From Atribacterota bacterium (GTDB taxonomy: Bacteria > Atribacterota > Phoenicimicrobiia > Phoenicimicrobiales > Stramentimicrobiaceae), in contig JAXGNR010000004.1 of the NCBI GenBank assembly GCA_040767965.1, positions 160,001-224,000 of the forward strand: a stretch of DNA of 64,000 bases, in the 5' to 3' direction. The notes under the pieces were generated by a model that did no database searches, was not told where the DNA came from, and saw only the letters and a program-made list of their open reading frames with translations. Made by a program: the position numbers and the translations under genes. Shown piece after piece: positions 15,440 to 40,363 of this stretch; the stretch's first letter is position 1, and each line of letters opens with the position of its first letter.

Positions 15440-16372
15440 ATGTTTTATAAAAAGGAATTATCAATATTTTTTATATTTATTTTTACTTTATCAATATTCC
15501 TACCACAATTTGCTTTTGCTCAGACAACTTCTGAAATTACAATTATTTCAGATCTCTCTCAGATTGAAATGCAGGTGTTTGGAGAAGTAAAGACAGAATC
15601 AATATTAAGCAGGGTGGAATATTTAGAAAAAGAAATGGTTGGCAGAACATTGCCAGGAATTATCAAGGATAGAGTAAAGCAGCTAAAAGACTTTATATTG
15701 ACTGGCACTCCTGAAGAGCCATCTTTGGCTTTTAAGATTAATTCAGTCCAATTGAGTTTAATGGACAGTGTTACAGAAGATCCTCTTTTGGCTAAAATAG
15801 AAGAGCTGGAAATAAATATTTTTGGTGAGGTATCTGATGATGTGCTGGCAATGCGGGCAGAGAAAATATTTAATGTTATTTTTGAAGATGGAAGACCATC
15901 TACAACAGAATTGACAATTCCGGCAGGGACTTTAGTCCCGGTTGTTTTGATGGATGATATTGGATCTAAAAAAAGTGATGATGGTGATATTTTTGAATAT
16001 CAAATAGCTGAAGATGTTATTTATTCGGGTATAAATTTAATACCAAAAGGCACCACAGGAAAAGGCGAAGTTCTCAAAGCAAGAAAAGCCTCAGTATTTT
16101 TGAGAAAAGGCAAACTAGAATTAGATTTTAGGTTCATTGAAGCAATAGACAACACTCCTTTACGTTTGGTCATGGGTGAAAAAGCAGAAGCAGAAAATTC
16201 AAGAATAGGTTTAGCTTTTGGGGCTAGTATTGCTGGCTTAATTATCCTTAGCAATCCCATTGGACTGGTAGCTGGTGCTTTAATTCCTGGAAAGAACATC
16301 ACTTTAGAAGAAGGAACAAAAATCTTTTTGGAAGTTGCCGGAGATACAAAAATATCCACTCTAGCCTATTAA
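15440..16372 (+). CDS. Secreted conserved hypothetical protein (helical repeats + beta-rich C-terminal domain)
   Basis: Signal peptide AFA-Q; repeated (L/I)E...G......R...L units; IPAGT/IPKGT motifs. Confidence 0.6.
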   Translation: MFYKKELSIFFIFIFTLSIFLPQFAFAQTTSEITIISDLSQIEMQVFGEVKTESILSRVEYLEKEMVGRTLPGIIKDRVKQLKDFILTGTPEEPSLAFKINSVQLSLMDSVTEDPLLAKIEELEINIFGEVSDDVLAMRAEKIFNVIFEDGRPSTTELTIPAGTLVPVVLMDDIGSKKSDDGDIFEYQIAEDVIYSGINLIPKGTTGKGEVLKARKASVFLRKGKLELDFRFIEAIDNTPLRLVMGEKAEAENSRIGLAFGASIAGLIILSNPIGLVAGALIPGKNITLEEGTKIFLEVAGDTKISTLAY

Positions 16373-16374
16373 CT

Positions 16375-16401
16375 TTGTCACGGGGACGGTTCTTTTGACA
16401 A
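16375..16401 (+). repeat. REP-like 27-bp element, family A copy 1
   Basis: TTGTCACGGGGACGGTTCTTTTGACAA, identical to the core of the transposase-flanking repeats. Confidence 0.92.
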
Positions 16402-16546
16402 TATTATTTAGTTATTTATAGTTATACAGTATCTGTTTAAGAAAAAAGATTATAAAATTATTAACACAATTATCTATCACTAATTGTTAATTAAGTAAGA
16501 ATAAATATTAACAAGATATAGGTCTATAGCTTATAGATAGCAGAGC

Positions 16547-16590
16547 AAACAAAAAAGAGCAGAATGTTTTCATTCTGCTCTTTTTTGTTT
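16547..16590. terminator. Bidirectional terminator between convergent genes
   Basis: AAACAAAAAAGAGCAGAATG-TTTT-CATTCTGCTCTTTTTTGTTT, 20-bp stem. Confidence 0.85.
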
Positions 16591-16669
16591 TTAACTATAA
16601 CTTATAGAATTTTATTTATTATTTTACTATTTCAATAAAAATATATTTATATTTCTAAAACATCTACAT

Positions 16670-17233
16670 TTAGGGGTACAAGTACACATAATTTGAGCCT
16701 GAAGAAATATTTTTTGTCTCACTGTCATAACCCAAAGAGGCACCTAATACATCAATTGCCTCAAAAAAATGACTACCAGTGGAAACATTTGCAATTGTAT
16801 AAGTACCATCTGTTACATTGGTGAATTCTGTAAATCCATCCATTTTAATATCATACTCATAAGAGCCGCTTACAACAACATAAACTGTTCCAGTGACAGT
16901 AGTGGGAACAGGATCTAAATATACATTGTTAGTCCCGGTGTTGATATAAACTCTTGTACTGTCATAACCATAAGATTCTCCATCTATATCAATTGCTTCA
17001 ATGGTCCGATATCCGGTTGGGATATCCGGTATTGTATAAGTGCCTGGTGCTTTATTGGAAAGCTTGGTTACTCCATCAATTTTTATATCATAATAATAAC
17101 TGCCGGTTATAGTAACTCTTACAGTACCTGTGTTTCCAGGTACTACAATATCAACACAACCTGTTAGAGCAATTGTTAACAAGAAAAAAGTTAGAATTAC
17201 CAGGGTTGTTTTAAGAAAATATTTTTTAATCAT
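16670..17233 (-). CDS. Lipoprotein with two tandem PEGA-like beta domains
   Basis: Lipobox LTGC; two ~72-aa repeats TGTV.V...GSY.YDIK.DG...GTYTI...EAID..G.S.GYDS...VYL.P. Confidence 0.75.
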   Translation of the reverse strand: MIKKYFLKTTLVILTFFLLTIALTGCVDIVVPGNTGTVRVTITGSYYYDIKIDGVTKLSNKAPGTYTIPDIPTGYRTIEAIDIDGESYGYDSTRVYINTGTNNVYLDPVPTTVTGTVYVVVSGSYEYDIKMDGFTEFTNVTDGTYTIANVSTGSHFFEAIDVLGASLGYDSETKNISSGSNYVYLYP

Positions 17234-17392
17234 TTATTTACTCCCTTCTTTTTTAATTAAATCATAGTATCTATTGTAATTATAAAGTAAATAAGAAAAA
17301 TCTACAAATAGAATAAAGAAATTAAACAACACCTCTTACATAGACACCCTTAAGAATTGGATTATCAACAATTAAAAATTCAGCCTTCATTT

Positions 17393-19147
17393 TTAATATT
17401 CAAAAATAGTAAAACTGGAGTTCAAAGGAAATATTTGTACATTTTGATTTACCCTCATTGCAGCTACCCACTGAGCAATATAGTTATAGGCTTCATTTAA
17501 ATTTATTTTATTATCTGCATTTGTATCTGCTGGGAAATTATTTTTTAATCCACAACCTTCATACAATGCTTGTGTAAAAACTCCAAAAGGTTCAACATTT
17601 GGCGGGTACAATTCATAACTTGACTGATACCAGTGACTGGATGTAAGGACCTGATATTCACTGGAAGTAAGCAAGTCTTTAGTTATTATTTTGTCAGAAA
17701 ATGAATTAATAATTGATTCATTAAAATTGGATAAAAAGTCTTCTTCTGAAATAAGGTTAATATTGGTTTCATTACTAGAAATATCTTTCCCGATAAAACC
17801 TCCGGAATGACAGGAATCAATAAGCACAACTTTTGTTCCCGGAATAGCACTAAGAGCAGACTCTAATTCATCTACGCTAATCCCGGTAGAGATGTTACCA
17901 TTAAAATCAGCGGGGCATAAGTAAGAAGTTTGATTTAGTGAAGCTCCATGGCCGCTGAAATAAAAATAAGAAACATCATCATTGGTAGCATCGGAAAAGG
18001 TGGTTTGAATTCTCTGAAGGATGTTGCTCTTGGTTGCCTGGGTATTTTTCAATTCACTGATTTTGGAAAAACCAGTATTGTTAAGTCCAAATTGACAATC
18101 ATTAAATATTTCTTTCATTTTATTAACATCATATGGCGGTGCAATAAGGTCACCTTCTTCTCCATAGTAAATATAATCCCCGATTCCAATTGCTAAAGCT
18201 CTATATACTGATTTTGCTGAAATTGGAGCATCTGTTACCGTAACTGAGATAGTATCATTTTTTACTATCCCATTATCTTCAAGTGTAATTGTAATTATCG
18301 AATTTCCCACAGAAATCCCGGTAATTAAACCAGAATTATTTATGGAAACATTAGAATTATTTGTATTGAAGTTGCAAAGTTCAGGATTTATATTAATTTC
18401 ATTTCCACTATCATAATATGCAGTAATAGAAGAAATATTTTGTGATTCTCCAACCGCTAATGACATTACAGAAGGCGTTACGGAAATTCCGGTTAAACTT
18501 CCCAGCTCTACAGGTGTCCCATAGACATTCACTAAAATACTGTCACTTTTTGTAATATTATTTTCTGTATAAATTGCCCAAATTGTTGTTTCTCCTTCAT
18601 TAATGCCAGTAATTATACCTGCTGGAGAGACATTAGCAACCTCCTTATTTATGCTTAAAAGAGTGCATTCAGGATATGAAAGATCTCTGTTTGTTCCATC
18701 AGAATAAAAAGCTTTAATAGAAATTATATTGAAAATTTGGCCAGAGAATAAATTAATTGATTCAGGGTTAATTTTTATTGATGTAAGGTAACTAGATATT
18801 GGCGGATAACTATTAGGAGTGAGTTCTACATCAAGCATATTTAGTTGATCAGGAAGTATTTGGATAATATTATTACTGCTTAAATAGCCATTTAGCTTTA
18901 AGGTTATTAAGCTACCACCAACAATATTTTCTAATGTATATGGAGTTACAAAGCCAGTATATGTACCATCAAGATATATTGAAGCACCAACTGGATTAGA
19001 AGTAATTTGAAGATTACCATAAGAATAGTCAGGGTTAGTAGGTAATACACTGCATCCCATTAATATACTAAACAATAAAATTGTAACAATTAAATAGAAT
19101 ATTAGTACTATTTTATCTTTTGAATGATAATTAATTAACATTGCCAT
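17393..19147 (-). CDS. Lipoprotein: PEGA + two Ig-like domains + caspase-like (C14, metacaspase) protease
   Basis: Lipobox LMGC; ITSNPVGASIYLDG PEGA; ALAIGIGDY, YFSGHG (His), IDSCHSGG (Cys). Confidence 0.88.
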   Translation of the reverse strand: MAMLINYHSKDKIVLIFYLIVTILLFSILMGCSVLPTNPDYSYGNLQITSNPVGASIYLDGTYTGFVTPYTLENIVGGSLITLKLNGYLSSNNIIQILPDQLNMLDVELTPNSYPPISSYLTSIKINPESINLFSGQIFNIISIKAFYSDGTNRDLSYPECTLLSINKEVANVSPAGIITGINEGETTIWAIYTENNITKSDSILVNVYGTPVELGSLTGISVTPSVMSLAVGESQNISSITAYYDSGNEININPELCNFNTNNSNVSINNSGLITGISVGNSIITITLEDNGIVKNDTISVTVTDAPISAKSVYRALAIGIGDYIYYGEEGDLIAPPYDVNKMKEIFNDCQFGLNNTGFSKISELKNTQATKSNILQRIQTTFSDATNDDVSYFYFSGHGASLNQTSYLCPADFNGNISTGISVDELESALSAIPGTKVVLIDSCHSGGFIGKDISSNETNINLISEEDFLSNFNESIINSFSDKIITKDLLTSSEYQVLTSSHWYQSSYELYPPNVEPFGVFTQALYEGCGLKNNFPADTNADNKINLNEAYNYIAQWVAAMRVNQNVQIFPLNSSFTIFEY

Positions 19148-19229
19148 TAGGAACCTTTCTTAAACATAAACTTTAATTAGATTTCTCAATATAACTAATA
19201 TAATACATTTTTTATACAATCTACAGGAT

Positions 19230-19290
19230 TTAATATAAAAAAGAAGAGTTTTCACTTCTATAATTGATAAACTCTTCTTTTTTATATTAA
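19230..19290. terminator. 22-bp perfect inverted repeat, probable terminator of the 19379-19714 gene
   Basis: TTAATATAAAAAAGAAGAGTTT ... AAACTCTTCTTTTTTATATTAA. Confidence 0.7.
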
Positions 19291-19378
19291 GTAAATCGGC
19301 ATAATCTTTTATTAATATTGAGAATAATTATAAAATACAAAAATAATATAAATATATTTATATTATTTTATAAAAATC

Positions 19379-19714
19379 TTACCAAAACCAAGTAAAGTTA
19401 AGGATGTTATTACCTGGATTCAAACTAACATATTCAATATGGCTATGATTTCCAAATTCATCTACAATTTGAACGCTAGCAACAGTTCCGGGAGTAAGTC
19501 CTGTTACTGTGACAGAACCGTTGTAATCGATATATTTACCTGTAGAGAATCCATTTACCCAAATATAGCCCCAACAATCAAAACAAGAAGAATACACCGT
19601 TAATGTGGCAGTAGGTGTTGGGGTAGGTGTTGGGGTAGGAACTGAGGCTGCACACCCTGTTAGTAGAACTAAAATACTTAAAATTGCGATAATAAAAACA
19701 ATATTTTTTTTCAT
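19379..19714 (-). CDS. Small lipoprotein, PT-repeat linker + PEGA-like domain
   Basis: Lipobox LTGC, PTPTPTPTPT, GYIWVNG. Confidence 0.7.
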   Translation of the reverse strand: MKKNIVFIIAILSILVLLTGCAASVPTPTPTPTPTATLTVYSSCFDCWGYIWVNGFSTGKYIDYNGSVTVTGLTPGTVASVQIVDEFGNHSHIEYVSLNPGNNILNFTWFW

Positions 19715-19972
19715 ATAATAAATACCTCTTTCTTTATTTAAGATAAATCTAGACAGATCTATTTTGAGAAATAAGCAAACTAAGATAAATTTTTTAAAAA
19801 TACATTCCTAATAAAGAGTTTTATAATTGTTTAAAATTAACCAACTTATTTTAAACAAATGATAAGCGTATAATTATTTTCAGGCAACCCTCCTCTCATA
19901 AATGGATTAAAAGAATTTGCAAGATAAAAATTTAATTATAAATGAACATAAATATAATAGAAAATTGATTGC

Positions 19973-20293
19973 TTAATAGGTAGAAATGTTAACTCTATTA
20001 TAACCACTAGTTATGGTTTGCCATTTATCCCCATAACGATTTAAAAATGAAGTATCTTGTGCTTCAAAGTGATGATAACCTGCACTTACATTATGAAGAA
20101 TTAATTTGCCGGTGTTGTCAGTTGTGCCTTGAAATGAACCATCGACATAAATATCATATTTCCAATTATCGTTTGTTATATTGATCTCTACAATCGGATT
20201 ACCTACGTAAATAACACAACCATTGAGGAAGATGACTAAAACAAGAGTGAGCAATACTGCAGAAAAAACTTTCAATAAAAGATTCTTTTTCAT
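19973..20293 (-). CDS. Small PEGA-like lipoprotein
   Basis: Lipobox LNGC, YDIYVDG...G.TD..G. Confidence 0.7.
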   Translation of the reverse strand: MKKNLLLKVFSAVLLTLVLVIFLNGCVIYVGNPIVEINITNDNWKYDIYVDGSFQGTTDNTGKLILHNVSAGYHHFEAQDTSFLNRYGDKWQTITSGYNRVNISTY

Positions 20294-20626
20294 TTTTTCT
20301 ACTCCATTAATATTTATAAAAATATTAGAAAATGAAAATTTTGTTTAATTAATTATATTTTATTAAATAAAAATATACAATAAAAATATATAAAAAAAGT
20401 TAATTATCAGAAGGATTTTTAACATTTATTAGACATCCGAAGATTGATTTGGTTTTTATTAAAAAATGACAGGATTGGAAAAATATTTTATTATGCTTGT
20501 ATTTTAGATAAACCTATAAAAATAAACTAAATAATGGTAAAATACAAATATTGCAAAACAAAATTGGCAAAATATTATAAACGTTTAATGAATATTGTTA
20601 AATTTACAAGGAAAATAGGATGATTT

Positions 20627-21889
20627 ATGATAAATAATAAATTGATAAAAATATTTTTATTAGTATTTATTGCTACCTTGTTGTCTACTTTTTTAAATGG
20701 TTGTCAGATAACTCCCCCTATTGCCGAAAAAGCTGAATGGACAGTGATGGTTTATCTAGCTGCCGGAAATAATTTAGAATCTGTCGGTATTCAAGATATA
20801 AATGAAATGGAATTAATTGGATCTAATAAAGATGTTAATATTATAGTACAGCTGGACAGGATTCCGTTTCATGTTTTGGATCAATATGGAATGGGAGACG
20901 CAGATGATGCATCTAATAACAATTGGACTGGCACCAGGAGATATTATGTTACCAAAGATATAAATCCTGAAATTATCAGATCAAACTTGATTATGGATCT
21001 TGGAGAAAAAAATATGGGAGACCCGGAGACTTTAAACGATTTTGCTTTATGGGCAATGCAAAATTACCCTGCAAAACGTTACTTGCTGGTACTTTGGAAT
21101 CATGGCGGAGGGTTTCGATCAATAGACACCAGTTCCAGTAGAGATATCTGCTGGGATTGGAATTTTGGATTTAATAACAGAATTACCATGCCTCAGTTAA
21201 AAGAATCGTTATCGTTTATTTCAGGCCAGATGGGTAAAAAGATAGATATTGTAGGAATGGATGCCTGCTATATGGGCATGGTAGAAGTTGCTTACCAAAT
21301 AAAAGATTATTCTGATATAGTAGTTTTTTCTGAAGCCTCTGTTCCTGGTGATGGATGGCAATATGACTGTATATTGGAAGGTTTGGTTAATTATCCTCTG
21401 CAGAAAACAAATGATTTTGCTTCATCAATAGTAGATAGCTTTCAAAAACAATATTCTGGCTCAGGTAGAAATGTCACCATATCTGCTGTTGATTTAAGTA
21501 AAATAGATAATTTAGCAGACAATATTTCCAATCTGGCTAATGCCATAATAAGTGATAATAAAACTTTGAAAGAAAACTATCGTGCTGCTGCCAGAAATAC
21601 CCAGAATTATACTGGTGTTGGTTTTGAATATATCGATTTAAAAGATTTTACGAGTAATTTGCCTGACTATACTTCTAATTCATCAGTACTGATTTATGCT
21701 AACCAAATTAAACAATATCTAGAAGACGGTAATATCATTATTAATAATACTTTCAGTGGAAGCAGTGTTAGGAATTCATATGGACTTTCGATCTATTTTC
21801 CTTATTATAGCTATGATAACTATTATAATAACTTAATTTTTACACAGGATTTTCTTTGGGATGAAATGTTAACCCATTTGGGATATTAG
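20627..21889 (+). CDS. Clostripain-family (C11) cysteine peptidase lipoprotein
   Basis: Lipobox LNGC; WTVMVYL, DINEME, LWNHGGG (His), MDACYMG (Cys), GLSIYFP. Confidence 0.92.
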   Translation: MINNKLIKIFLLVFIATLLSTFLNGCQITPPIAEKAEWTVMVYLAAGNNLESVGIQDINEMELIGSNKDVNIIVQLDRIPFHVLDQYGMGDADDASNNNWTGTRRYYVTKDINPEIIRSNLIMDLGEKNMGDPETLNDFALWAMQNYPAKRYLLVLWNHGGGFRSIDTSSSRDICWDWNFGFNNRITMPQLKESLSFISGQMGKKIDIVGMDACYMGMVEVAYQIKDYSDIVVFSEASVPGDGWQYDCILEGLVNYPLQKTNDFASSIVDSFQKQYSGSGRNVTISAVDLSKIDNLADNISNLANAIISDNKTLKENYRAAARNTQNYTGVGFEYIDLKDFTSNLPDYTSNSSVLIYANQIKQYLEDGNIIINNTFSGSSVRNSYGLSIYFPYYSYDNYYNNLIFTQDFLWDEMLTHLGY

Positions 21890-22132
21890 GGCATACCAAA
21901 TCAAAAAATATGATGAAGTTATTATGAAATATTGAAATATAAAATATTACAAGAAAATATAAAAAGAGCCAGACCTGTATTAGAAGTAAAAAAATAAAAA
22001 ATAATAAAGTAAAAAAATTATTTTAAATTAATATTAGGTAGATAATTTAATTAACCTAAAAACCTAAAAAAGGATTAATCAGTAGAAAATTTTTAACTGT
22101 TTTCTACATAATTTTCTACATAAATAAATAAA

Positions 22133-22711: not shown

Positions 22712-22873
22712 ATAATATCTTTTAGATATTTAAATTGCTATTATTCTTTTAATGGTATTTATATTGCATATTGCGGTTTTTAAAAGCAGAAGAAAAAAAT
22801 AAAAGAAGTTTAATATATAATTTTATGTATATTGTATATATATTGTATATATTTTGAAAGGATGGTTTATTCT

Positions 22874-23572: not shown

Positions 23573-23638
23573 TTTTCTTTGGATACATATAGATAGCAGG
23601 GCAGCATTAAAATGACAGGAAACAGGAGGTTGAATAAT

Positions 23639-24232
23639 ATGAATTTTGGAAAAAACATAATAAAAAGACATCATCTTTTTTTATTGCTCATAGTGCTAGT
23701 AATATTTTTGGCTGGTTGTGCTCGCTGGCCTACAGATCCTAATGGCGGAGGTAACGGTGATGGCCAGAAGCTGTTGCGGGTAAGGGTAGATATTAATCAG
23801 AACGGATTAATAAATACTGAAGATGGGCAATATTACATAGTATTTGACACCAACAAAGATGCTCCATTCAGCCCTGCAGATGATATTGAAGATTGGGAGA
23901 CAGGGTTTTATTATATAAGGCTGGATATGATGGGTTTTTTTCTGGGAGAGGTTTTAGAATCTGGTTCTTCTGAGCAATTTTTATCAGGTACAGTTTCTGA
24001 TGAGTATTTCCAAATTCTGATTCCATTGCAGGATATTGGCGATCCGGAAGGAATTCATATGAATGTTATAACTACTGATTTAGATAATGTAACATATGAT
24101 GCTCTGGATATAGATTATTACATTGACACAAACATAATTTCTACAAAAACTGAAAATGATTTTATCCAGGATTCAGCCGGTGGTCCTGATTTTGACATTT
24201 CCCAGGCCACAACAACAATCCTAATCCCTTAA
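23639..24232 (+). CDS. Hypothetical lipoprotein
   Basis: AGGAGG RBS before ATG 23639; lipobox LAGC; Gly-rich linker; beta-rich domain. Confidence 0.7.
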   Translation: MNFGKNIIKRHHLFLLLIVLVIFLAGCARWPTDPNGGGNGDGQKLLRVRVDINQNGLINTEDGQYYIVFDTNKDAPFSPADDIEDWETGFYYIRLDMMGFFLGEVLESGSSEQFLSGTVSDEYFQILIPLQDIGDPEGIHMNVITTDLDNVTYDALDIDYYIDTNIISTKTENDFIQDSAGGPDFDISQATTTILIP

Positions 24233-24241
24233 ACTTTGTCA

Positions 24242-25123
24242 AAGTTGTCACGGGGACGGTTCTTTTGACAACCTTTTAATGAAAATGATATAGTAAAATA
24301 AATATTATTAAAAGGAATATAGTGTGTTATGCCCAGATTACCAAGAAAACTGAATGATATTGGAATATATCATATTATGGTGAGAGGTAATGCAAAGCAA
24401 AAAATATTTATTGATAACCAGGATAAAAGAAAATACCTAAAAATAATTACCCAAGCTAAGAAAAAAAATTTATTTTGCATTTATGCTTTTTGTATCATGG
24501 ACAATCATGCTCATCTGGTATTGAAAGAAATTGAAGAATCAGTTTCTAAGTTTATGAAAAGAATTACTGTTAGTTATGCTTTTTACTTTAATGCAAAATA
24601 TGACAGAGTAGGTCATGTATTTCAGGATCGCTTTAAAAGCGAAACAATTAAAGATGATGCATATCTTCTTTCTGTAATAAGATATGTCCATAATAATCCT
24701 GAAAAAGCAGGTATTGCTACCAAAGAAAAATATCCCTGGAGTAGCTACAATGATTACGTTTCATCTAATGATAGCCTAACAGAAACAAGAGAAATTCTTA
24801 ATATGTTTTCAAGTAATTCAACAGAAGCAATGGCTGCATTCAAGGAATTTAGTGATCAGGCTGATAAAAACAAAAGAGAATATCTGGAAATGGACGAAGA
24901 ATATAATAAAAAGTTACTTTTTGAATATGTAAAAAAATATCTGGAAGAAAAACAGCTTAATATAAAAGATTTAAAAAATAGAAAATACTTTGATCAACGT
25001 GATAATCTTGTAAAAAATATCACCAAAAAATATAATTTTTCTACCAGGTCTATTGCAGAAGCTACTGGAATAGGTAGGGAAACGGTGAGAAGGTTGTCAA
25101 AAGAACCGTCCCCGTGACAACTT
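24242..25123 (+). mobile_element. HUH (Y1) transposase element bounded by perfect 34-bp inverted repeats
   Basis: AAGTTGTCACGGGGACGGTTCTTTTGACAACCTT at 24242-24275 and its exact reverse complement at 25090-25123. Confidence 0.85.
24329..25117 (+). CDS. REP-associated tyrosine transposase (RAYT-like, IS200/IS605 Y1 superfamily) with C-terminal HTH
   Basis: MPRLPR, YHIMVRG, MDNHAHL (HUH), FQDRFKS, RYVHNNPEKAG (catalytic Tyr), YPWSSY; C-terminal STRSIAEATGIGRETVRR. Confidence 0.93.
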   Translation: MPRLPRKLNDIGIYHIMVRGNAKQKIFIDNQDKRKYLKIITQAKKKNLFCIYAFCIMDNHAHLVLKEIEESVSKFMKRITVSYAFYFNAKYDRVGHVFQDRFKSETIKDDAYLLSVIRYVHNNPEKAGIATKEKYPWSSYNDYVSSNDSLTETREILNMFSSNSTEAMAAFKEFSDQADKNKREYLEMDEEYNKKLLFEYVKKYLEEKQLNIKDLKNRKYFDQRDNLVKNITKKYNFSTRSIAEATGIGRETVRRLSKEPSP

Positions 25124-28100
25124 ATTGGCCGATGGTGATTGATTCGGTTGGGAAGGCATTGATTTTAAAATCAAGCCAGATGGCTTTAGTTGACTGGCGG
25201 TAATTAATGCTAATTTCACGACAATGCAAATCTCTTACAACGCTGATTACACTATTTCTTATATCAAAATCATCAAAATAAACAGTACCACTATAAGACA
25301 TGCGCCAATCTTCGCTTATATTTAAAGACAATCTGGTGTCTACACGTTTACTCCATTCCATATTATTGAGATTATAAGATGTGCTCAAATAAACATCATG
25401 TTCTCCCTTTGGCTTCCATTGTAATCTTGCTCCCAGGCTGCCAAAAGATTCAGTAACAAAATTATAATTAGTAGACAGATTTATCTGTAAATTATCTGCC
25501 GGCTTTAAAACAACACTGGCGCTGGCTGATTCGGATAATTCACTTAAAGTGTCAAAATTAAAAGGAGTTGGACCTTCAGACATATAATAACTGTAAGAAA
25601 AATTACCATAGAATTCAGGCTGATAGCCAACTCTCAAATCTAGTTTTCCACCCAGCATATAACGGGCCTCACCAGTTAAATAAACATCCTGGCGATAAAC
25701 ACCTGAAGCAGTCAGCCTGATTTTATCAGTAATATCAAAAGGCCTGTTGGCATTAATAATATATTCTCCCCGGATATTTTGCTGATCAGTTGCGCTTTCA
25801 TAATAATTTCCCACAGATGCGCTAATGCTATAATTAATTCCAGTGTCTAAAAATTTTGCGTTGTTTTTATTAAAAACCAGTTCTGGTAATTTGTCCAGAG
25901 TGCTTGGTTTGCTTGGGTTTAGGGGATCCCCGCCGAAAGTAAATTGCTTTTCGGTAATAAGTCTTACTGAATAACCTTTACCCGAATATCTCAATTGCCA
26001 CTCCGGACGAAGCTGATATTCAGCAGGATTGGAAGTAGAATCTTTAGAATTATAAAGCAATACAAGGTTTGAATTTATTTTGTCAGTAATAGTTTGGTCA
26101 TAACTCAATTTGATATTACCAGTACTGGTAGTAGTATTGCTGATATTAAAGTTATATTTTCCGGTAATTGTCAGGAGGGCTTCGTCCCATTTTTTATAAA
26201 AATAAAAATCAGGTCTTATTATGTGAGAATTTTCTTGCGTGCTTGATCCTCCATAATAAGTTCCATCATAACTAATATTTGCTCTCAGTCTCAGGTCATT
26301 TTCAAAGTTTTGCCAATAGCTAACTTTGCCATCCAGGTCATAAATGCTAGTATTTTTTCTTTTTAAACCATAAAAATATAGGACTAATTCACCATCATCA
26401 ATTTTTTCTTCACCTAATTCAAAAGTATGTTCAACGCCAGCCCCTATTCCTTTTTTCAGCATCAGATCTAAGTAAATGCTTCCATAAGAATCAGCGTCTT
26501 GAACATAATTGAATTGATTTTTTAAGAACCATCCCTCGCTGCTGCTTTGGCCGATATCGGGCCAGTAGGGGAACTGATTTTTCCCTCTTAAGAAAATCAT
26601 AAAAGAAGGCAAGGTAAATATTTTTCTTTTTCCTTCATACCAGGAGACTTTTTTGGCAATAATTTTATCATCAGGATAAATTGTTATTTTTTCAGCCTCA
26701 ATATGCCAGTGAGGCTCTTCCAGGTCACAAGTTGTAAAAACACCTCCGGAAATATCAATAGTTTCCGGGAAATTCTCATAACGGTCACCCTGATAATAAA
26801 CTACACCTTTAATTTTATCTCCAGTGGCTTCCCCGGATAATCCTTCCATTATTATTTTTTCAGTTTCCCAATTATAATTTATAGCCTGACTGGAAAAGGA
26901 CTCATTCCCTCTGGCAAAAGTGACTTGATCAGAGGCAATTAATTCTTTTCTATCTATAAATATTTGAAGATAATTTGATTTAAGAGTGATGTCCTTATAA
27001 CGGAGATTGACTTTATTTTGAGCAATAACAACATCTTCTCCATCCACAATCTGATAGCTTAAAAATTCTGCTTCAATATTAAGGCCGCCTTCTACAAAAT
27101 CTTCATCTTCTTCGCCTTCTTCCGGAGCTGTTTCCTCTAATGATTCCTGGAAGTAAAAGAATCCTCCTGTTATAGATTCAGCAATTGGCTGATTTTCTAT
27201 ATCGTATCCGGTTACTTTGTACTGCCACTGATAACGATGCTGTTTTGTAAATAAAGATTCACTTTCATTTTCTTCAAAATCCTCATTATCACCATTGTTG
27301 ATGTCTGTATTATTTGTATCATTATTTGTATCCTGAATAATAGCTTCACCATTTTCATTTATATTATTATTTTCATCAGCTTCATTATCATCTTCGCTGT
27401 TTTCATTATTTTCATTGTTTGGTTCTTTTATTGTATTGTTATTGTTAATATTACTATTATCGCTATTTTCGCTAATGCCTTCACTTTCTTCATCATCTTC
27501 GCTGGCAGTTTCTTCTGTTATTTCGGTAATTATTTCTTCTGGAAGCAATCGCAGACTATCTATGTTTATATTTTCAATTTGAACTCTACTTACTTCTTCT
27601 CCTTCGGTTATATCAAAAAGAATAAATTCTCCCTGTGCAGAAAAAATAACATTTCTAAAAGGAAATGCATTAATAGAAATAGATTCCCATTTAAATTCAG
27701 GGTTTTCTTCTGCTACCACTTCATTGTTGGCTGGGTATTGGGCAGAACTGGAAGGTAACCAAAAATCAATATCAATTGCATCTGTCCTGCCTACTGATTC
27801 CTCCTGCCACAATCCTTCTATATAATATTGATAAGAGTTTCCTTCCAGGATATCTTCATCAACCCACCACAGCTGAAATCCTTCATCATTATAATCAACA
27901 TTACGGACTTCTTCGAATTCTCCCTGATTACTACTTTTGAAGATTTTGTATTCATCTGCTCCACCAAAGGCAGCCCAGGTAATTCTTACTTCATATTCGG
28001 TAAATCCACCCTGAAAACGGGTAACTGCAAAAGCTTTTATTTCTTCATCCAGCCAGAAATCTTGAGCTGCTGCAGGTATATTAAAAAAATGAGAGCAGCA

Positions 28101-28190
28101 TAAAAAAGGAGCTAAAAATAAAAGGGTGGTTATGATAATTAAAAATATATTTTTAAATTTAAAAGGTATTCTATTGAGTTTATTTGCCAT
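25122..28190 (-). CDS. lptD: LptD-like outer membrane translocon with long N-terminal extension
   Basis: OstA-like region, FTTCDLEEPHWHIEA.KI.IYP signature, large beta-barrel, RDLHCRE near C-terminus. Confidence 0.82.
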   Translation of the reverse strand: MANKLNRIPFKFKNIFLIIITTLLFLAPFLCCSHFFNIPAAAQDFWLDEEIKAFAVTRFQGGFTEYEVRITWAAFGGADEYKIFKSSNQGEFEEVRNVDYNDEGFQLWWVDEDILEGNSYQYYIEGLWQEESVGRTDAIDIDFWLPSSSAQYPANNEVVAEENPEFKWESISINAFPFRNVIFSAQGEFILFDITEGEEVSRVQIENINIDSLRLLPEEIITEITEETASEDDEESEGISENSDNSNINNNNTIKEPNNENNENSEDDNEADENNNINENGEAIIQDTNNDTNNTDINNGDNEDFEENESESLFTKQHRYQWQYKVTGYDIENQPIAESITGGFFYFQESLEETAPEEGEEDEDFVEGGLNIEAEFLSYQIVDGEDVVIAQNKVNLRYKDITLKSNYLQIFIDRKELIASDQVTFARGNESFSSQAINYNWETEKIIMEGLSGEATGDKIKGVVYYQGDRYENFPETIDISGGVFTTCDLEEPHWHIEAEKITIYPDDKIIAKKVSWYEGKRKIFTLPSFMIFLRGKNQFPYWPDIGQSSSEGWFLKNQFNYVQDADSYGSIYLDLMLKKGIGAGVEHTFELGEEKIDDGELVLYFYGLKRKNTSIYDLDGKVSYWQNFENDLRLRANISYDGTYYGGSSTQENSHIIRPDFYFYKKWDEALLTITGKYNFNISNTTTSTGNIKLSYDQTITDKINSNLVLLYNSKDSTSNPAEYQLRPEWQLRYSGKGYSVRLITEKQFTFGGDPLNPSKPSTLDKLPELVFNKNNAKFLDTGINYSISASVGNYYESATDQQNIRGEYIINANRPFDITDKIRLTASGVYRQDVYLTGEARYMLGGKLDLRVGYQPEFYGNFSYSYYMSEGPTPFNFDTLSELSESASASVVLKPADNLQINLSTNYNFVTESFGSLGARLQWKPKGEHDVYLSTSYNLNNMEWSKRVDTRLSLNISEDWRMSYSGTVYFDDFDIRNSVISVVRDLHCREISINYRQSTKAIWLDFKINAFPTESITIGQ

Positions 28191-32295: not shown

Positions 32296-32306
32296 TATTG
32301 GAAGTT

Positions 32307-32882: not shown

Positions 32883-32887
32883 AGCAC

Positions 32888-32915: not shown

Positions 32916-32978
32916 ACAAAGTAGAAGTGAAAATAAATCATTTTAATATTTATATTTTATAGGTGTAAAGATAATAAA

Positions 32979-33638: not shown

Positions 33639-33697
33639 AAAAGCTGTTAGTGTTAAGAGGAAGAGAAAGAACAAAAATTACAAGGTGTTAAAAATAA

Positions 33698-34675: not shown

Positions 34676-34843
34676 GAATAATTTACAGTTCTTTTAAAAT
34701 TTAATAAAATAGTATCGAGTATATAGCAGGTAGTATCTAGTGAAAAGTGAAAGCATGTTACGTTTTCCTGCAAAGGTGGAAGGTTATAAATGTATTTTAC
34801 TAACTACTATCGCTAACGACTAACAGATAAAGCAAGCTTCTGC

Positions 34844-34872
34844 TTGACTTTTTAAGCAAAATGCTTTATAAA
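34844..34872 (+). promoter_or_regulatory. Putative sigma70 promoter of Cys-rich lipoprotein 1
   Basis: TTGACT-N17-TATAAA. Confidence 0.5.
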
Positions 34873-35084
34873 CTAAAATGATTGACTAAAGTCTTAAAGG
34901 CTGGTCACAAGCCCGCGTGAGGTCGACATGCGGAATATTTACTGTAGAAAATATTTATTTAATACAGGTAAAGAGCTTGAAGTCCAGATAAATAGAAGAG
35001 GAATTAATTAATTTCTCATAAAATCCATGGAAAAAAGAAAAATAGAAAATTAAGAAAAACAAAATTCGAAAGGAGAATTTTTTA

Positions 35085-36050
35085 ATGAAGAAATTTTTAG
35101 TATTATTACTGATCTCAGTCCTAGCCCTGTTTGTTTTTGCCGGTTGTTCTGGCGTAGTTCCAGGCGAAGGCGAAGGCGAAGGTGAAGGTGAAATCGAAGA
35201 AGCAACCGTTGAAATTGACGGTTCTGTAGTCTTAGAAGGCAAAACCTATGTTGCAGCAGGTACTCATACCATTACTGTTACTTTCCCGGCACCAGTAGCT
35301 AATGCAGGTGCCTATTTAAGTGATTGTTCTGGTGATTACAGCAAAGCACCAATGGAACCAGATATTGTCCTTTTCCCAAACGAAGACAAGACCGTCTGGT
35401 CAGGTTCCGGATCTTTTGGTGATGGTGATTGTGAACCCTGCTGTGCTTCTTACCTGTACATCGATGCCGGCGAATGTGAAGAAGATGTCTGTATTGCCAT
35501 TCCGGTAATCGTTGATGGTTTACCTCCATATGCTAAAATTTTAATTGAAGCAGATGGCGATGATTGTGTCTGTGAAGACTGTGATATTACCTTCAGTATT
35601 TATGAAAAAGAAATTGACTGTGCAGATGATGAACTTTGCTGTGGTGATGACTGCTCAGGTTTAGCCAGCTGGTCTATTGCTATCTTTGACGAAGATCCGT
35701 TTGCAGAATGCTGCACCATCCCTTGTGTAGAACCAGTCTTTACCTGCAGCGGCACAGATTGCCCAATTGAATGCTCAACCGGCTGCCTGGTAGTAGGAGA
35801 AGAGGGAGATAAGTACTATGTTATCGTCAGCATGGTTGACCAGGTTGGCAATGATATGGAATACTATGCAACCATTGAAATTGAAAGTGATTGCGAAATT
35901 ACTGTTACTGAACATGCAGCTAATATTCCAGTTGGCGGAATTTACCAATGCACAGATTGGGATGCTCCAATGCCTACTGATGTTGAAGGAACAATCGGAC
36001 ATTGCAATTTTCCAGCATGGACTAATCAATACGGAGAAGAAATCGAATAA
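35085..36050 (+). CDS. Cys-rich acidic lipoprotein, paralog 1
   Basis: AAGGAG RBS; lipobox FAGC; (GE)5 linker; 24 Cys in 321 aa. Confidence 0.85.
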   Translation: MKKFLVLLLISVLALFVFAGCSGVVPGEGEGEGEGEIEEATVEIDGSVVLEGKTYVAAGTHTITVTFPAPVANAGAYLSDCSGDYSKAPMEPDIVLFPNEDKTVWSGSGSFGDGDCEPCCASYLYIDAGECEEDVCIAIPVIVDGLPPYAKILIEADGDDCVCEDCDITFSIYEKEIDCADDELCCGDDCSGLASWSIAIFDEDPFAECCTIPCVEPVFTCSGTDCPIECSTGCLVVGEEGDKYYVIVSMVDQVGNDMEYYATIEIESDCEITVTEHAANIPVGGIYQCTDWDAPMPTDVEGTIGHCNFPAWTNQYGEEIE

Positions 36051-36086
36051 TAATCTAATATTAATTTAACCAATACTATAAAGAAA

Positions 36087-36126
36087 AAAAAATGGGTTAG
36101 GAATTAAATTTCCTAATCCATTTTTT
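36087..36126 (+). terminator. Rho-independent terminator
   Basis: AAAAAATGGGTTAGGAA...TTCCTAATCCATTTTTT. Confidence 0.75.
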
Positions 36127-36604
36127 ATTTTCCTATTAATTTCTGTTTATTTTTTAATATTGAATTACTAAAAATATATAAAATATTTAACAACCAAAAT
36201 ACTTACAGTAAAATTATCTTTTATAACCACTCATAATTATCGATAAAGGTTTTTAATAAATATAGTTAATCATTAATACTATTATAATAATATATTTTTG
36301 TGAGTATTATTCGAAAACTACCAAAACGGTAACTATCCTTTTTTATGCTATTATATTATATGAATAATTAAATAAGCGATTGAGAAAGTGTAGTTAATCC
36401 AAATAAAGTTTTTTATAAATCTTTAAAAAATATGTTAATAATTCTCAAAAAAATTATAATTATGCAAATTGATATTTTTGATTTATTTCTATAATCTGCA
36501 ATCCTCTTTCTCTATAAATTAAGCCATTAAAAATATTCTAATAAGAAAATAATTTATTTAAAAACTATTTAAATTAAAAAAATTACAAAAAAATATAAAT
36601 ATTA

Positions 36605-36632
36605 TGTAACATCTTACTTGTCTTCTCGTATA
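36605..36632 (+). promoter_or_regulatory. ECF-sigma promoter upstream of Cys-rich lipoprotein 2
   Basis: TGTAAC-N16-CGTATA, same boxes and spacing as 32888-32915. Confidence 0.75.
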
Positions 36633-36787
36633 ATAGTTAAGTGTTAATTTTATATTATAATAATGCAGAAAATAATTTTTAGTATTTTAGTATTTGAAGA
36701 ATATTAAAATACAGCAAAATTTAATTATGCAATAAATTTTAGTAAGTAATAATTAATTTAGAAAAAAGAAAAGGAGTAACAAAAAAC

Positions 36788-37804
36788 ATGAAGAAATTTT
36801 TAGTATTATTACTGATCTCAGTTCTGGCCCTGTTTGTCTTTGCCGGCTGTTCCGGCGTAGTCCCGGGCGAAGGTGAAGGCGAAGGAGAAGGCGAAATTGA
36901 AGAAGTAACCGTTGAAATAGACGGTTCTGTAGTCTTAGAAGGTAAAACCTATGTCTCAGCAGGCAACCATACCATTACTGTTACCTTCCCAGCACCGGTT
37001 TCCGGCAGCGTTTCTGCAGAGATTACCGGCTGTACAGGTTATTACGGTGATAAAGGGGAAATTCCAGAGTATAATGGAGCTGTAGTCCTTTTCCCCAATG
37101 AAGACAAAACTGTCTGGTCCGGTTCCGGTTATTTTGGAGGATATATGGGTCCTTTGAGCAGCAGACAAGGATCACCTATACCTATAAACGGATTTTACAA
37201 TGATTGCTGTGCCTCTTATGTCAGAATTAATGCCGGCGAATGTTCTGATGATGTCTGCATCGAATTTCCGGTTATCGTTGATGCTCTACCTCCTTATGCT
37301 TCAATTGTAATAGCTACAGATGATGAATGTGTCTGTGAAGACTGTGATATTACCTTCAGCATTTATGAAAGCGAAGTTGACTGTGCTGATAACGAAGCCT
37401 GCTGTGGTGATGATTGCTCAGGTTTAGCCAGCTGGTCTATTGCTGTCTTTGATACCAACCCGTTTGCAGAATGCTGCACCATTCCTTGTGTAGAACCAGT
37501 CTTTACCTGCAGCGGCACAGATTGCCCAATTGAATGCGCAACCGGCTGCCTGGTAGTAGGAGAAGAGGGAGACATGTACTATGTTATCGTCAGCATGGTT
37601 GACCAGGTTGGCAATGAGAATGAATTCTACGCAACTATAGAGATAGAAAGTGATTGCTCTATAGAGGTACAAGATTATAGCAGCAATATAGAGATTGGTG
37701 GAGTGCCATCCTGTACTGACTGGACCAACGGCCAAATAATCAGCGAAGATACTGAAGCTGGTGGCTATGTATTTGGTTATTGTGGTGATAAATTTAGAAA
37801 TTAA
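36788..37804 (+). CDS. Cys-rich acidic lipoprotein, paralog 2
   Basis: First 39 aa identical to paralog 1; (GE)5; 23 Cys in 338 aa. Confidence 0.85.
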   Translation: MKKFLVLLLISVLALFVFAGCSGVVPGEGEGEGEGEIEEVTVEIDGSVVLEGKTYVSAGNHTITVTFPAPVSGSVSAEITGCTGYYGDKGEIPEYNGAVVLFPNEDKTVWSGSGYFGGYMGPLSSRQGSPIPINGFYNDCCASYVRINAGECSDDVCIEFPVIVDALPPYASIVIATDDECVCEDCDITFSIYESEVDCADNEACCGDDCSGLASWSIAVFDTNPFAECCTIPCVEPVFTCSGTDCPIECATGCLVVGEEGDMYYVIVSMVDQVGNENEFYATIEIESDCSIEVQDYSSNIEIGGVPSCTDWTNGQIISEDTEAGGYVFGYCGDKFRN

Positions 37805-37852
37805 CCTGAATTAAAAAATAGAAAAAATAAAATAAAATATAATTGAAATTTA

Positions 37853-37891
37853 ATAAATAAAAGAGGAGGTTTAACCTCCTCTTTTATTTAT
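37853..37891 (+). terminator. Rho-independent terminator
   Basis: ATAAATAAAAGAGGAGGTT-T-AACCTCCTCTTTTATTTAT. Confidence 0.85.
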
Positions 37892-37992
37892 AGATGCTTT
37901 TTGTATCACAAAAAATAGGAAAAAATGCTATTAATTAATTAAATAAAATCAGATAGAAAATATTTTAATTTAAATCTATTTTTTGGTTTTGC

Positions 37993-38760
37993 TTGTCAAG
38001 GAAGAGATATTTCTATATAATATTTTCTATGATAAAAATTTACCCAATTATAAAAAAAGGTATATTGCTCTTATCCTGTCTAGTATTTGCATTTTTATAT
38101 GCAGGATGCCATCAGGAAATTATTACCTCTAATCCGGATAATAATAATAATGATGACCAGTACTATAATGATATAAGAATACAATCGCTCCTGTTGGTCA
38201 AAGGAAATCCAGATATTGTTAAAGACTGTACTCCGGAATTTACAATATTTACAGAAAAGGATGAAGTTAAAAATATGTCTTTTAGCGGAAATGGGATAGA
38301 CTGGTCTCCCTGGATTCCATATGCCGAGAATTATGAAAATTTTAATATTGCCAGCGGCACATATGGAACTATGCGGGAATCAGGAAATAAAACCATTTAT
38401 ATCCGTTTCCAGGATGAAAATGGAATTGTCTTTCCAGCCGGATCACAGGAACCTGTTGTCTGTAATTTTAAATATAAAATGCAGGATTTGTTTTCTATTA
38501 AAATTGAACCATCAACAACAGAAGTTATGAAAGGTGGAAAAGCTAGTTTCCAAATAAAAGGATATGACATAGTATTAAATGAAGTACCTTTAGATCCTGC
38601 TCTGGCAAGCTGGACCAAGGGTTGCGGTGTGGGGGAATTAAATCCCATAGTTGGTTTAAGTACTACGTATACTGCTCCGGATATTGCCGGTGTAAGAGAT
38701 ATTGCTGCTCATTATGGATCTTTAAGAGTGGGCGCCAAAATATATATTTCAGAAAAATAA
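37993..38760 (+). CDS. Hypothetical lipoprotein with Ig-like domains
   Basis: Lipobox YAGC; WSPWIPY, G.KTIYIRF.D..G; Big-like C-terminal domain; start probably later (ATG ~38029). Confidence 0.7.
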   Translation: MSRKRYFYIIFSMIKIYPIIKKGILLLSCLVFAFLYAGCHQEIITSNPDNNNNDDQYYNDIRIQSLLLVKGNPDIVKDCTPEFTIFTEKDEVKNMSFSGNGIDWSPWIPYAENYENFNIASGTYGTMRESGNKTIYIRFQDENGIVFPAGSQEPVVCNFKYKMQDLFSIKIEPSTTEVMKGGKASFQIKGYDIVLNEVPLDPALASWTKGCGVGELNPIVGLSTTYTAPDIAGVRDIAAHYGSLRVGAKIYISEK

Positions 38761-38803
38761 AAATTATTATTAAATAAAGATTTTTAAAAAGGAGAAGATT
38801 ATA

Positions 38804-39555
38804 ATGAAAAAAATATTTGTCGTGTTATTAATATTATCAATAGCTCTGTTTGTTTTTTCCGGCTGTTCCGGTGTAGTCCCGGGTGAAGGTGAAGGCGAGG
38901 GTGAAGGCGAAGGTGAAGGCGAGGGTGAAGTCAAGCAAGTTGTTTTAGTTGAAACATTTGTAGCAGACGGTTGTGGCAATTGTGCCCTTCTTAAACCTAG
39001 ATTAGAAGATCTTGCTGATGAATATGATAGAAATGAAATGATCTTGGTGGAACTAATCCCATGGGCGACTTATTCACTATCTTTAGCTTATGAACGTTTT
39101 GATTGGTATTCACCAGACAACAAGAATATACCACAAACATATTTTAATGGGTCAAATAAAACAGTTGGCAGCTCTGCTTCTTACGCAACATTAAAAAGCA
39201 GAATCGATGCTCAGTTAACACTCACTCCAAAAGTTTCCATTCAGGCTTCTGCGCAGCACAAATGGCCAGACTTCAATAATTACCGGCTCAATTAAAAATA
39301 TTAGCAGCAATGATTTATCAAATCTGGTTATTAACGGAATGACTTTGAAAAGCAGAGGAAGCTTTGGTTATGCAGTAACAAATATTTTTGACAATGAAAA
39401 GATATCTCGTTTCCTCTTTAGCAGCAGGGGAGACTAAAAATTTCACAATGACATTAACAGATATAAATTGGGATGGCCAGGGTTATGATGGAGTTATTTT
39501 TGTTCAGTCTACAAGCGGCATTAAAACCATTTACCAATCTTTATATATTAACTAA
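38804..39555 (+). pseudogene. (GE)8 lipoprotein with thioredoxin-like CxxC / Omp28-like domain, interrupted by two +1 frameshifts
   Basis: Lipobox FSGC, VLVETF...CGNC; continues in shifted frames (RSTNGQTSIITGSIKN..., then ...YDGVIFVQ...IYQSLYIN*) and matches paralog 42765-43571. Confidence 0.75.
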
Positions 39556-39556
39556 A

Positions 39557-39583
39557 TTGTCACAGGGACGGTTTTTTTGACAA
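39557..39583 (+). repeat. REP-like element, family A copy 4
   Basis: TTGTCACAGGGACGGTTTTTTTGACAA (2 substitutions). Confidence 0.88.
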
Positions 39584-39925
39584 TATACTACGAAAAATTA
39601 TTTTGTAGTATATTGTCAAAAATTAATATAAGTTCTTTTAAATGTAAACATAAACATTTATGAGTACAACATGAAACAGGCCTGTATCTTGATTAAATTT
39701 AAGATACAGGTTGTACTATCTTGTATCAACAATGATGTTTTGATCTAGCTTTTGTTTTTAAAAGGTTTTCAAATAAAAATTAAAAACTAAAACAAGTAAT
39801 ATTGTAAGTATCAAAAAATGAGCAGGATCACTTGTTTATATGCAAAATTCTCATTCGATCTGCCAGATATAAAAAATAAGAAAAGCCACTGAACTAAAAC
39901 ATAAACAATAAAGGAGAACTTTTAG

Positions 39926-40333
39926 ATGAAAAAAATATGTTTATTGCTTTTAATAGTAATATTCTCATTTTTAATAATCGGATGTTCCGGAGTTACACCC
40001 AATACTCCTGGAGATGAATATGATGAACAAAATACACAGGTATCTTATATAAAAGTTACACCAGCAAGTACAGAGCTTTCCTTTGGCCAGTCCAAAAAAT
40101 TTGAAGTCAAGGCTTACAATTCTGAAAACAAATTGGTTGCCATGGATGCCTCTAAGATTAAATGGACCTGTACTTATGAATGTATTGCCTGCGGAGTAGT
40201 TTGTAATGTATCACCAGTTACAGGATCAGCACAGACAACTTTTAAAGCAACCAACCCTGAAAAAACCGGCAGCTTTGAAGTCTGGGCAAATTATGATGGA
40301 AAATGGGCTAAGGCAAACGTTACTGTAAACTAA
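39926..40333 (+). CDS. Small lipoprotein with Ig-like domain
   Basis: AAGGAG RBS, lipobox IIGC-SGVTP, IKVTPA..EL..G. Confidence 0.78.
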   Translation: MKKICLLLLIVIFSFLIIGCSGVTPNTPGDEYDEQNTQVSYIKVTPASTELSFGQSKKFEVKAYNSENKLVAMDASKIKWTCTYECIACGVVCNVSPVTGSAQTTFKATNPEKTGSFEVWANYDGKWAKANVTVN

Positions 40334-40336
40334 AGA

Positions 40337-40363
40337 TTGTCACAGGGACGGTTCTTTTGACAA
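40337..40363 (+). repeat. REP-like element, family A copy 5
   Basis: TTGTCACAGGGACGGTTCTTTTGACAA (1 substitution). Confidence 0.9.

Follow-up and report, generated by a model that had tools for sequence, protein, structure and literature searches.

We analyze a 27-bp repeat, and the transposase-like gene bracketed by two of its copies, in a 64,000-nt stretch of the genome of an Atribacterota bacterium (GenBank assembly GCA_040767965.1, contig JAXGNR010000004.1, positions 160,001 to 224,000; hereafter "the window", with G000 as the label for the genome that contains it). Copies of this repeat stand directly behind stop codons, in the sense orientation of the gene that ends there, well in excess of chance. 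The stop-side sense bias is real and order-wide, and it holds for about one third of the copies. On balance, we think that the 27-mer is probably the terminal-repeat family, of the repetitive extragenic palindromic (REP) or terminal inverted repeat (TIR) kind, of a single-copy and vertically inherited Y1 HUH gene of the RAYT (REP-associated tyrosine transposase) or TIRYT type, and that the bias may, at about even odds, arise because copies persist on the stop side of genes.

Placement of the repeat relative to stop codons

The G000 assembly (2.33 Mb in 30 contigs, 32.8% GC) contains 14 copies of the repeat when up to 5 substitutions are allowed. Six of these lie 0-12 nt past the stop of a sense open reading frame (ORF), two contain the ORF's end, and one lies antisense at 3 nt. 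Against a null of random intergenic positions, 2.9% of copies are expected at 0-12 nt in sense orientation (6/14 observed, P = 1.6e-6) and 0.93% at 0-3 nt (5/14 observed, P = 1.3e-7). When every non-coding TAA or TAG in G000 is taken as a possible target, 3.9% of them are real stops and P becomes 1.3e-4. An earlier note, made from the window, had held that the repeat always follows a stop; genome-wide, "always" fails, since 6/14 copies do so.

The core pattern of the repeat was found in 34/61 related genomes (15/21 in the window's family and 18/30 in its sister family) and in 0/9 genomes of four other Atribacterota families; with four variable positions freed, the count rises to 39/61. For placement, the DNA around the core-pattern matches was rescanned and two duplicate loci were dropped, leaving 138 copies from 34 genomes of two families; "gene" in these counts means the nearest ORF of at least 80 aa. 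A sense stop lies 0-12 nt upstream of 36 copies and an antisense stop 0-12 nt away from 2 (binomial P = 5e-9); neither the random orientation nor the random distance that the note had named as refuting its proposal is seen among these genomes. Distances from stop to repeat peak sharply at 0-3 nt (25/138) and fall away by 12 nt. In a further 7 copies a sense ORF ends within the repeat, at its TGA (positions 22-24) in 4, at TAG (positions 7-9) in 2 and at -1 in 1. The remaining copies overlap only the 3' end of the enzyme gene (7), are partners in a doublet or cluster (17), lie too near a contig end to judge (9), have a sense stop 13-60 nt upstream (9) or have no clear context (51). The 43 stop-adjacent or overlapping copies belong to 26 unrelated gene families; shared ancestry therefore does not produce the bias. 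The stop codon beside the repeat is TAA in 28/36 cases versus 66% genome-wide (P = 0.16).

The antisense exceptions are found at 3 and 5 nt from the stop. The single clear exception in G000, on contig C5 at 50119-50145 (minus strand), lies 3 nt past the stop of a D-Ala-D-Ala dipeptidase gene; this copy is also just ahead of the start region of the next gene and has an adjoining 5' half-copy.

Within the window, the 27-mer has five matches, with 0 expected in 100 shuffles. Copy 1 (16375-16401, plus strand) is an exact match to the consensus and is preceded by TAA at 16370-16372 and then CT. Copies 2 (24245-24271, plus) and 3 (25094-25120, minus) form the left and right flanks of the transposase gene. 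Ahead of copy 2 stand TAA (24230-24232), ACT, TTGTCA and AAG, with a partial 5' half-copy, TTGTCAAAG (24236-24244, plus), immediately before the full repeat; copy 3 follows TAA (reverse complement 25122-25124) and G, and thus sits 1 nt past the stop of a convergent 1022-aa gene. Copy 4 (39557-39583, plus; 2 substitutions) follows TAA at 39553-39555 and A, and copy 5 (40337-40363, plus; 1 substitution) follows TAA at 40331-40333 and AGA. Our reading of the sequence bears out the five copies and their stop-codon contexts as first described, including the duplicated hexamer at 24236-24244. The description "directly behind TAA" fits all five contexts at the level of letters; as to genes, ORFs of 135-1022 aa end at 4/5 of these stops, and the TAA at 39553 closes merely a 55-58-codon frame.

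Comparison of orthologous gene ends with and without the repeat bears on its age. The 310-aa gene that precedes copy 1 has orthologues in 10/21 family genomes, and its C-terminus is equally long whether the repeat is there or not. G000 and G005 have the repeat behind the stop, and six genomes lack it at this site. In two genomes of genus g10 the stop falls inside the repeat and the protein is two residues longer, its C-terminus being otherwise the same. An 809-aa clostripain-family peptidase gene carries the repeat in G000 only, 0 nt past its stop; the site is empty, and the C-terminus the same, in three other genera and on two metagenome contigs. A metagenome scan for the end of this gene returned 3 contigs, of which 2 are empty and identical to the G006 locus and 1 is distant, so that none of the 3 supplies a same-species empty site. 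For a dipeptidase gene the repeat is present at 1/17 loci, 3 nt past the stop, with the C-terminus unchanged relative to the 16 empty loci. No empty site at these three loci or in the metagenome scan is near enough in sequence to give the exact insertion junction.

At orthologous sites that share the repeat, its identity reaches 85-100% for most pairs (67-81% if a degenerate copy is involved), versus 61-92% for the ORF 3' ends and 55-80% for the downstream DNA. Copies in one genome also share that genome's variant, e.g., the TTGTGACAT ending in G019. Together with the lineage-specific insertions, these comparisons indicate that the repeat is kept or renewed and that at least some stop-adjacent copies are recent. 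One otherwise empty site (locus L094 in G008) carries gtgcaaagaaccgattc about 12 nt past the stop of the 310-aa orthologue. Nine consecutive bases of this sequence match the reverse-complemented core of the repeat exactly; it may be what is left of an inverted copy that has decayed.

The enzyme gene and its repeat

The gene between inverted copies 2 and 3 (24329-25117, plus strand) encodes a 262-aa RAYT/TIRYT-type Y1 HUH protein. Its product matches Pfam Y1_Tnp (2.5e-15) and NCBIfam REP_Tyr_transpos, the latter at 69 bits and under the cut-off of 80. The motifs H60-A-H62 and Y119-x3-N123-P124 vary little or not at all among 17 homologues and align to those of 4ER8, the structure of E. coli TnpA-REP. 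A phmmer search of the Protein Data Bank (PDB) with the single sequence gave no match; the profile of the 17 homologues found 4ER8 as its best match (E 2.1e-5), with IS200-type entries at 0.1 or weaker. The AlphaFold model (mean pLDDT 85.8) also has 4ER8 as its top fold match, at E 8.8e-7 and a target-normalised TM-score of 0.70. Beyond the catalytic fold, the model places five helices at residues 190-257, with good confidence, in a C-terminal domain whose helix-turn-helix (HTH) matches are weak and all below cut-off (HTH_26, E 0.005; HTH_23, E 0.14).

The repeat is built into this gene at both ends. The complement of copy 3 encodes the enzyme's last 8 codons and its TGA stop, and the 3' arm of copy 2, TTGACA, is the -35 element of a promoter-like site at 24265-24294 (11/12 consensus positions, with a TG extension). 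Orthologues of at least 49% identity occur in 13/61 genomes, and by coordinates inverted copies flank the gene in at least 9 of these 13. The motif is present in 13/13 orthologue-bearing genomes versus 21/48 others, in line with the proposed co-occurrence of repeat and transposase clade. The 206-aa and 1022-aa genes are the enzyme gene's neighbours in 5 genomes of the family. Copies also cluster around the gene, with 5/14 G000 copies in the surrounding 24 kb; leaving out the flanks, 3/12 are observed there versus about 0.12 expected (hand arithmetic). The assignment of the repeat to a domesticated-looking, single-copy HUH Y1 gene thus stands, the gene being syntenic and bracketed by inverted copies. 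G000 has one full enzyme gene and one 45%-identity fragment at a contig end; the latter is the start of a second RAYT-like gene (contig C19, 13313-13501; 45% over 64 residues) that runs off the contig.

The four "AA"-variant copies (TTGTCAAAGGG...) in G000 form two inverted pairs, laid out as around the enzyme gene. The first (C8, 131962 plus and 134294 minus) spans 2.3 kb and brackets one 622-aa gene, whose product by eye resembles a GTP-dependent phosphoenolpyruvate carboxykinase; the second (C5, 22752 plus and 26084 minus) encloses 3.3 kb, in which one protein by eye resembles SWIM zinc-finger proteins. At L005, L012, L022, L023, L026, L035, L039 and L040 of the sister family, an identical 12-base stretch, ttttcttaccgt, comes after many copies. 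It is complementary to the final enzyme codons that precede the repeat, although no enzyme ORF follows, and an antisense ORF ends about 120-140 nt away. Such loci may represent a longer derivative element that contains the 3' end of the enzyme gene, like the bacterial interspersed mosaic elements (BIMEs) of Nunvar et al. (PMC2817692; this and the other papers below are cited in excerpt).

Across 137 full copies, where near-invariance partly reflects how the copies were found, the outer stem TGTCA/TGACA (positions 2-6 and 22-26) and the core GGGACGGTTCT (positions 9-19) are nearly invariant, and positions 1, 7, 8, 20, 21 and 27 are free to vary. Judged by this pattern, the core looks like a recognition sequence. 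The flanks prefer A at -1 and T at +1, +3 and +4, alike in stop-adjacent and non-adjacent copies. The repeat can be read as a tiny in-frame NTG...TGA ORF; its codon 3 is free and is TAG in 17/137 copies, which rules out a conserved peptide. The window, its relatives and Sporomusa all have 5' half-copies immediately before full copies. These half-repeats (from about positions 1-9 to 1-20) occur at many independent loci in three lineages (L030, L079, L091 at position 1499, L023, L031, L038 and L071; Sporomusa L176-L178; window 24236-24244) and may be the footprint of the copying mechanism or of slippage.

The same pairing of enzyme and repeat occurs in Bacillota. In Sporomusa malonica (G061), a homologue that is 43-45% identical and has the same SKEPSP tail is flanked by the same 27-mer, and one copy lies 2 nt past a TAA. 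The core pattern has 15 matches in this genome and 186 in Pelotomaculum propionicicum (G063), where they mostly form doublets, spaced at a 31-nt period and found in either relative orientation, as in BIMEs. It has no match in a Clostridium bovifaecis genome with a more distant homologue.

As to the genes beside the window repeats, all five upstream proteins begin with signal- or lipoprotein-like hydrophobic segments by a crude hydrophobicity measure, so the statement that all five preceding genes encode secreted or envelope proteins holds at 5/5 by that measure. They are a 310-aa signal-peptide protein gene (15440-16372, plus; its TAA 2 nt ahead of copy 1); a 206-aa lipoprotein-like gene upstream of the transposase gene (23612-24232, plus), a neighbour conserved in the family; the 1022-aa signal-peptide protein gene (25122-28190, minus); a thioredoxin-like lipoprotein gene (38804-39555, plus); and a 135-aa lipoprotein gene (39926-40333, plus; its TAA 3 nt ahead of copy 5), whose likely orthologue in G019 also bears the repeat, 5 nt past its stop. 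The name lptD, given earlier to the 1022-aa gene, is not sustained: its product has just a weak LptC/OstA-like segment, below cut-off, and a PDB sequence search gave no match. In the thioredoxin-like gene, the frame 38804-39295 continues by eye through two frame changes to 39555, the last frame stopping at the TAA at 39553, 1 nt before copy 4. Because it runs over three frames, the gene is probably broken or mis-assembled, and it seems to be a pseudogene or to contain assembly errors at A/T runs. At the Rfam gathering score the repeats are unmatched, and the only matches in the window are a c-di-GMP-I riboswitch (50988-51070), a tRNA (54327-54399) and the RNase P RNA (55338-55690).

Candidate causes of the stop-side bias

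The most likely cause of the bias, to which we give roughly even chances of being right, is persistence in the 3' untranslated region (3'-UTR). The enzyme would bind the hairpin as single-stranded DNA and occasionally copy it to new sites, preferentially nearby. Copies that supply the opening bases of a transcribed 3'-UTR, in the orientation with the fuller RNA hairpin, would be the ones to persist, and would work as E. coli REPs do, capping the mRNA 3' end or slowing the ribosome as it terminates. Copies at other places would be lost faster. A genuine insertion preference for gene ends may contribute.

Several observations weigh against this explanation. The 0-3 nt peak, and recent insertions there, are explained by an insertion preference no less well than by selection; about two thirds of the copies are not stop-adjacent; and copy number is low (14), unlike that of classical REPs. 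The hairpin is also weak. The sense RNA fold, at -8.2 kcal/mol, is better than the antisense one, at -6.2, and speaks for the explanation; both use the outer stem, so the earlier statement that the element "folds only on that strand" was overstated. The G.T "pairs" 9-19 and 11-17 that had been proposed for the inner stem never turn into G-C among the 137 full copies, and the variable positions are paired about as often as base frequencies predict (hand estimate); the inner stem is therefore unsupported. With so weak a hairpin and no inner-stem covariation, a role for RNA structure is not demonstrated. Finally, the counts in relatives use ORFs of at least 80 aa rather than gene predictions, related genomes are non-independent, and the first motif search was biased to the repeat variant of G000.

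It is rather unlikely, in our estimate, that the enzyme or its single-stranded DNA directs copies to the position just past a stop on the sense (non-template) strand, through the end of translation with an uncoupled polymerase or through a short stop-like target sequence. The sharp 0-3 nt peak (25/138) with its decay by 12 nt speaks for such targeting. So do the two lineage-specific insertions at 0 and 3 nt that left C-termini intact, the orientation of copies with the gene on both replication strands in Pelotomaculum, and the 310-aa gene, one end of which bears the repeat in differing configurations across genera. However, spacing varies from 0 to 12 nt and is not fixed as for IS608-type target cleavage, the antisense exceptions at 3 and 5 nt run counter to a strand rule, about two thirds of the copies are located elsewhere, and no empty site is similar enough to reveal the exact junction. 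TAA or TAG occurs at 0-3 nt in 23/93 non-adjacent copies versus 16-20 at control offsets; this lack of excess leaves a plain TAA/TAG target unsupported and, with the variable spacing, speaks against the stop-codon-guided insertion that the earlier note had offered. We regard as quite unlikely the bolder form in which the insertion step itself yields the stop-hugging, with the HUH enzyme pasting its hairpin into the sense (non-template) strand at the very point where translation ends and the complex of the DNA or RNA polymerase changes state; if true, a transposon would in effect read gene ends.

Orientation could instead be a by-product of replication, the transposase inserting into the lagging-strand template while most genes are co-oriented with the fork. 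G000 would suit this, since 7/8 singleton copies read on the G-rich (leading) strand (hand-sorted from the GC-skew table); for the same reason, gene and replication effects are inseparable in that genome. The window has a uniformly G-rich plus strand, and on contig C4 the skew changes sign at about 600-625 kb, marking a replication origin or terminus. Pelotomaculum permits the separation. In 400 kb of its repeat-dense DNA (113 copies) the bias is weaker, with 19 sense versus 8 antisense copies at 0-12 nt, and repeat strand stands to GC skew at 51:62. Near gene ends (within 30 nt), the repeat is sense at 20/28 leading-strand and 11/14 lagging-strand genes. In Pelotomaculum, repeat orientation tracks the gene and not the replication fork, which largely refutes a replication-strand cause for this sample. 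Moreover, the window copy past the 1022-aa gene is sense to a lagging-strand gene, and replication cannot account for the 0-3 nt distance; we hold this explanation to be highly improbable.

A mobile promoter or terminator module strikes us as very unlikely. The 3' arm is a perfect -35 box (TTGACA), and two repeats contain the start of a promoter-like site matching 11/12 consensus positions, at 16395 and, ahead of the enzyme gene, at 24265; T-rich bases come after the hairpin, with T preferred at +1, +3 and +4. Yet a -10 box lies at 16-18 nt in 7/98 copies versus 3-12 at control spacings, and there is no preferred distance to downstream starts, except for the enzyme gene. A terminator scan flagged 0/5 window repeats, whose 15-nt loop and 2 outer-stem G-C pairs fall outside its rules and set them apart from intrinsic terminators. 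Least probable of all, with only a slight chance, are recombination sites that shuffle surface-protein cassettes, like integron attC. Such sites would explain why 7/8 adjacent G000 genes have an N-terminal hydrophobic signal, versus 24% genome-wide, and why copies form direct-orientation series at 39557 and 40337 and, in a set of three, on contig C9. In relatives, however, the genes beside the repeat encode, among others, a dipeptidase, a methyltransferase-like protein and further proteins that look cytoplasmic by eye, orthologues stay at their loci with or without the repeat, and no repeat-bounded gene was seen at a new locus. The suggested link to surface proteins therefore holds in G000 and finds no support in its relatives.

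Relation to known REP and TIR systems

A new system that marks gene 3' ends, as the earlier note envisaged, is not needed, because known REP behaviour covers the placement. The cited portion of PMC3733652 places most REPs downstream of ORFs, in many cases <20 bp from the ORF's 3' end, and has GTAG REPs often providing the stop codon; the excerpt of PMC12306157 summarises earlier work in which REPs cause ribosomes to stall when they lie within 15 nt of a stop. The closeness of REPs to ORF 3' ends, even to the point of supplying stops, is thus already published. Among the matches listed in literature searches for Atribacter with RAYT, REPIN or REP, there was no mention of Atribacter, and the matches listed for the core 10-mer all came from unrelated fields.

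The present case gives Atribacterota, in which there is almost no genetics, a clean REP-type system of low copy number. The same 27-base hairpin pairs with Bacillota enzymes that are 43-45% identical (Sporomusa, Pelotomaculum), so the enzyme-hairpin pair is conserved or exchanged across phyla. The system also connects a TIRYT-like class of enzymes, with a putative HTH, to a hairpin family that is truly dispersed. It offers a small and countable data set in which orientation tracks the gene and recent insertions already stand 0-3 nt past intact stops, which sharpens the old question of why REPs crowd gene ends, by selection on a transcribed hairpin or by insertion preference. The cultured carriers, Sporomusa and Pelotomaculum, make this question testable.

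Much is shared with the REPtron (Nunvar 2010, PMC2817692; structure 4ER8). In both, a single-copy Y1 HUH gene has inverted hairpin flanks that are also dispersed, the repeat abuts or overlaps the enzyme's stop, and copies cluster near the gene and crowd ORF 3' ends; the same paper describes clusters of REPs close to rayt genes, and REP clusters that incorporate the 3' ends of these genes. The HUH and Y-x3-N-P motifs are common to the two, 4ER8 is the best profile and fold match, and both are inherited vertically as a single copy in a conserved neighbourhood (here the same two neighbours in 5 family genomes). Set against the REPtron as described in that excerpt, the Atribacterota repeat has no GTAG or GT[AG]G tag and has the foot NTGTCA instead, and its stem is short and AT-rich around a 15-nt conserved loop, whereas the REPtron has a long GC stem. 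There are 14 copies in G000 versus >100, high copy number being confined to Pelotomaculum (186 matches), and the enzyme has an extra helical C-terminal domain of about 110 residues.

The elements of the IS200/IS605 family (IS608, ISDra2) share the Y1 HUH fold and, presumably, the recognition of single-strand hairpins. Here, by contrast, the gene is single-copy and syntenic, its ends are inverted rather than direct, and no fixed target tetranucleotide or 5' flank was seen. E. coli REPs near stops (PMC12306157) likewise place a hairpin within the footprint of the terminating ribosome. The Atribacterota hairpin is much weaker, and a strict sense orientation is not reported for E. coli in the cited portion of that paper.

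The TIRtron or TIRYT system (Di Nocera 2013, PMC3733652) corresponds to TnpA-Y1 subclass 2.1 (Quentin 2018, PMC6006769, which in its cited portion equates the two and describes C-terminal HTH-like domains) and probably to the Group 1 RAYTs of PMC5581495. By these published descriptions, it has a RAYT-like protein with a C-terminal HTH-like extension (Bac_DnaA_C, HTH_23 or HTH_28), as the enzyme here may have, its HTH matches being weak and below cut-off. The cited portion of PMC3733652 gives TIRYT genes inverted repeats that share GGGGWSAS, some of them dispersed. The GGGGACGG of our repeat agrees with GGGGWSAS at 7/8 positions only, and the inverted flanks carry a G-rich motif in both. Group 1 RAYTs are the most widely distributed group and occur in Clostridia, with flanking 16-mers at about 12 per replicon (PMC5581495, in excerpt), and the repeat described here likewise combines a low copy number of the flanking word with a wide, patchy distribution that includes Clostridia. 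No REP-like sequences were noted near subclass 2.1 genes in the cited portion of PMC6006769, whereas the flank of the Atribacterota gene is a self-folding unit dispersed 14 times in G000, with 186 matches in Pelotomaculum. Judged by sequence, then, the repeat and its domesticated Y1 enzyme are a REP-type family, closest to the TIRYT or Group 1 kind, and on the same footing this family is new for Atribacterota and held in common with Bacillota.

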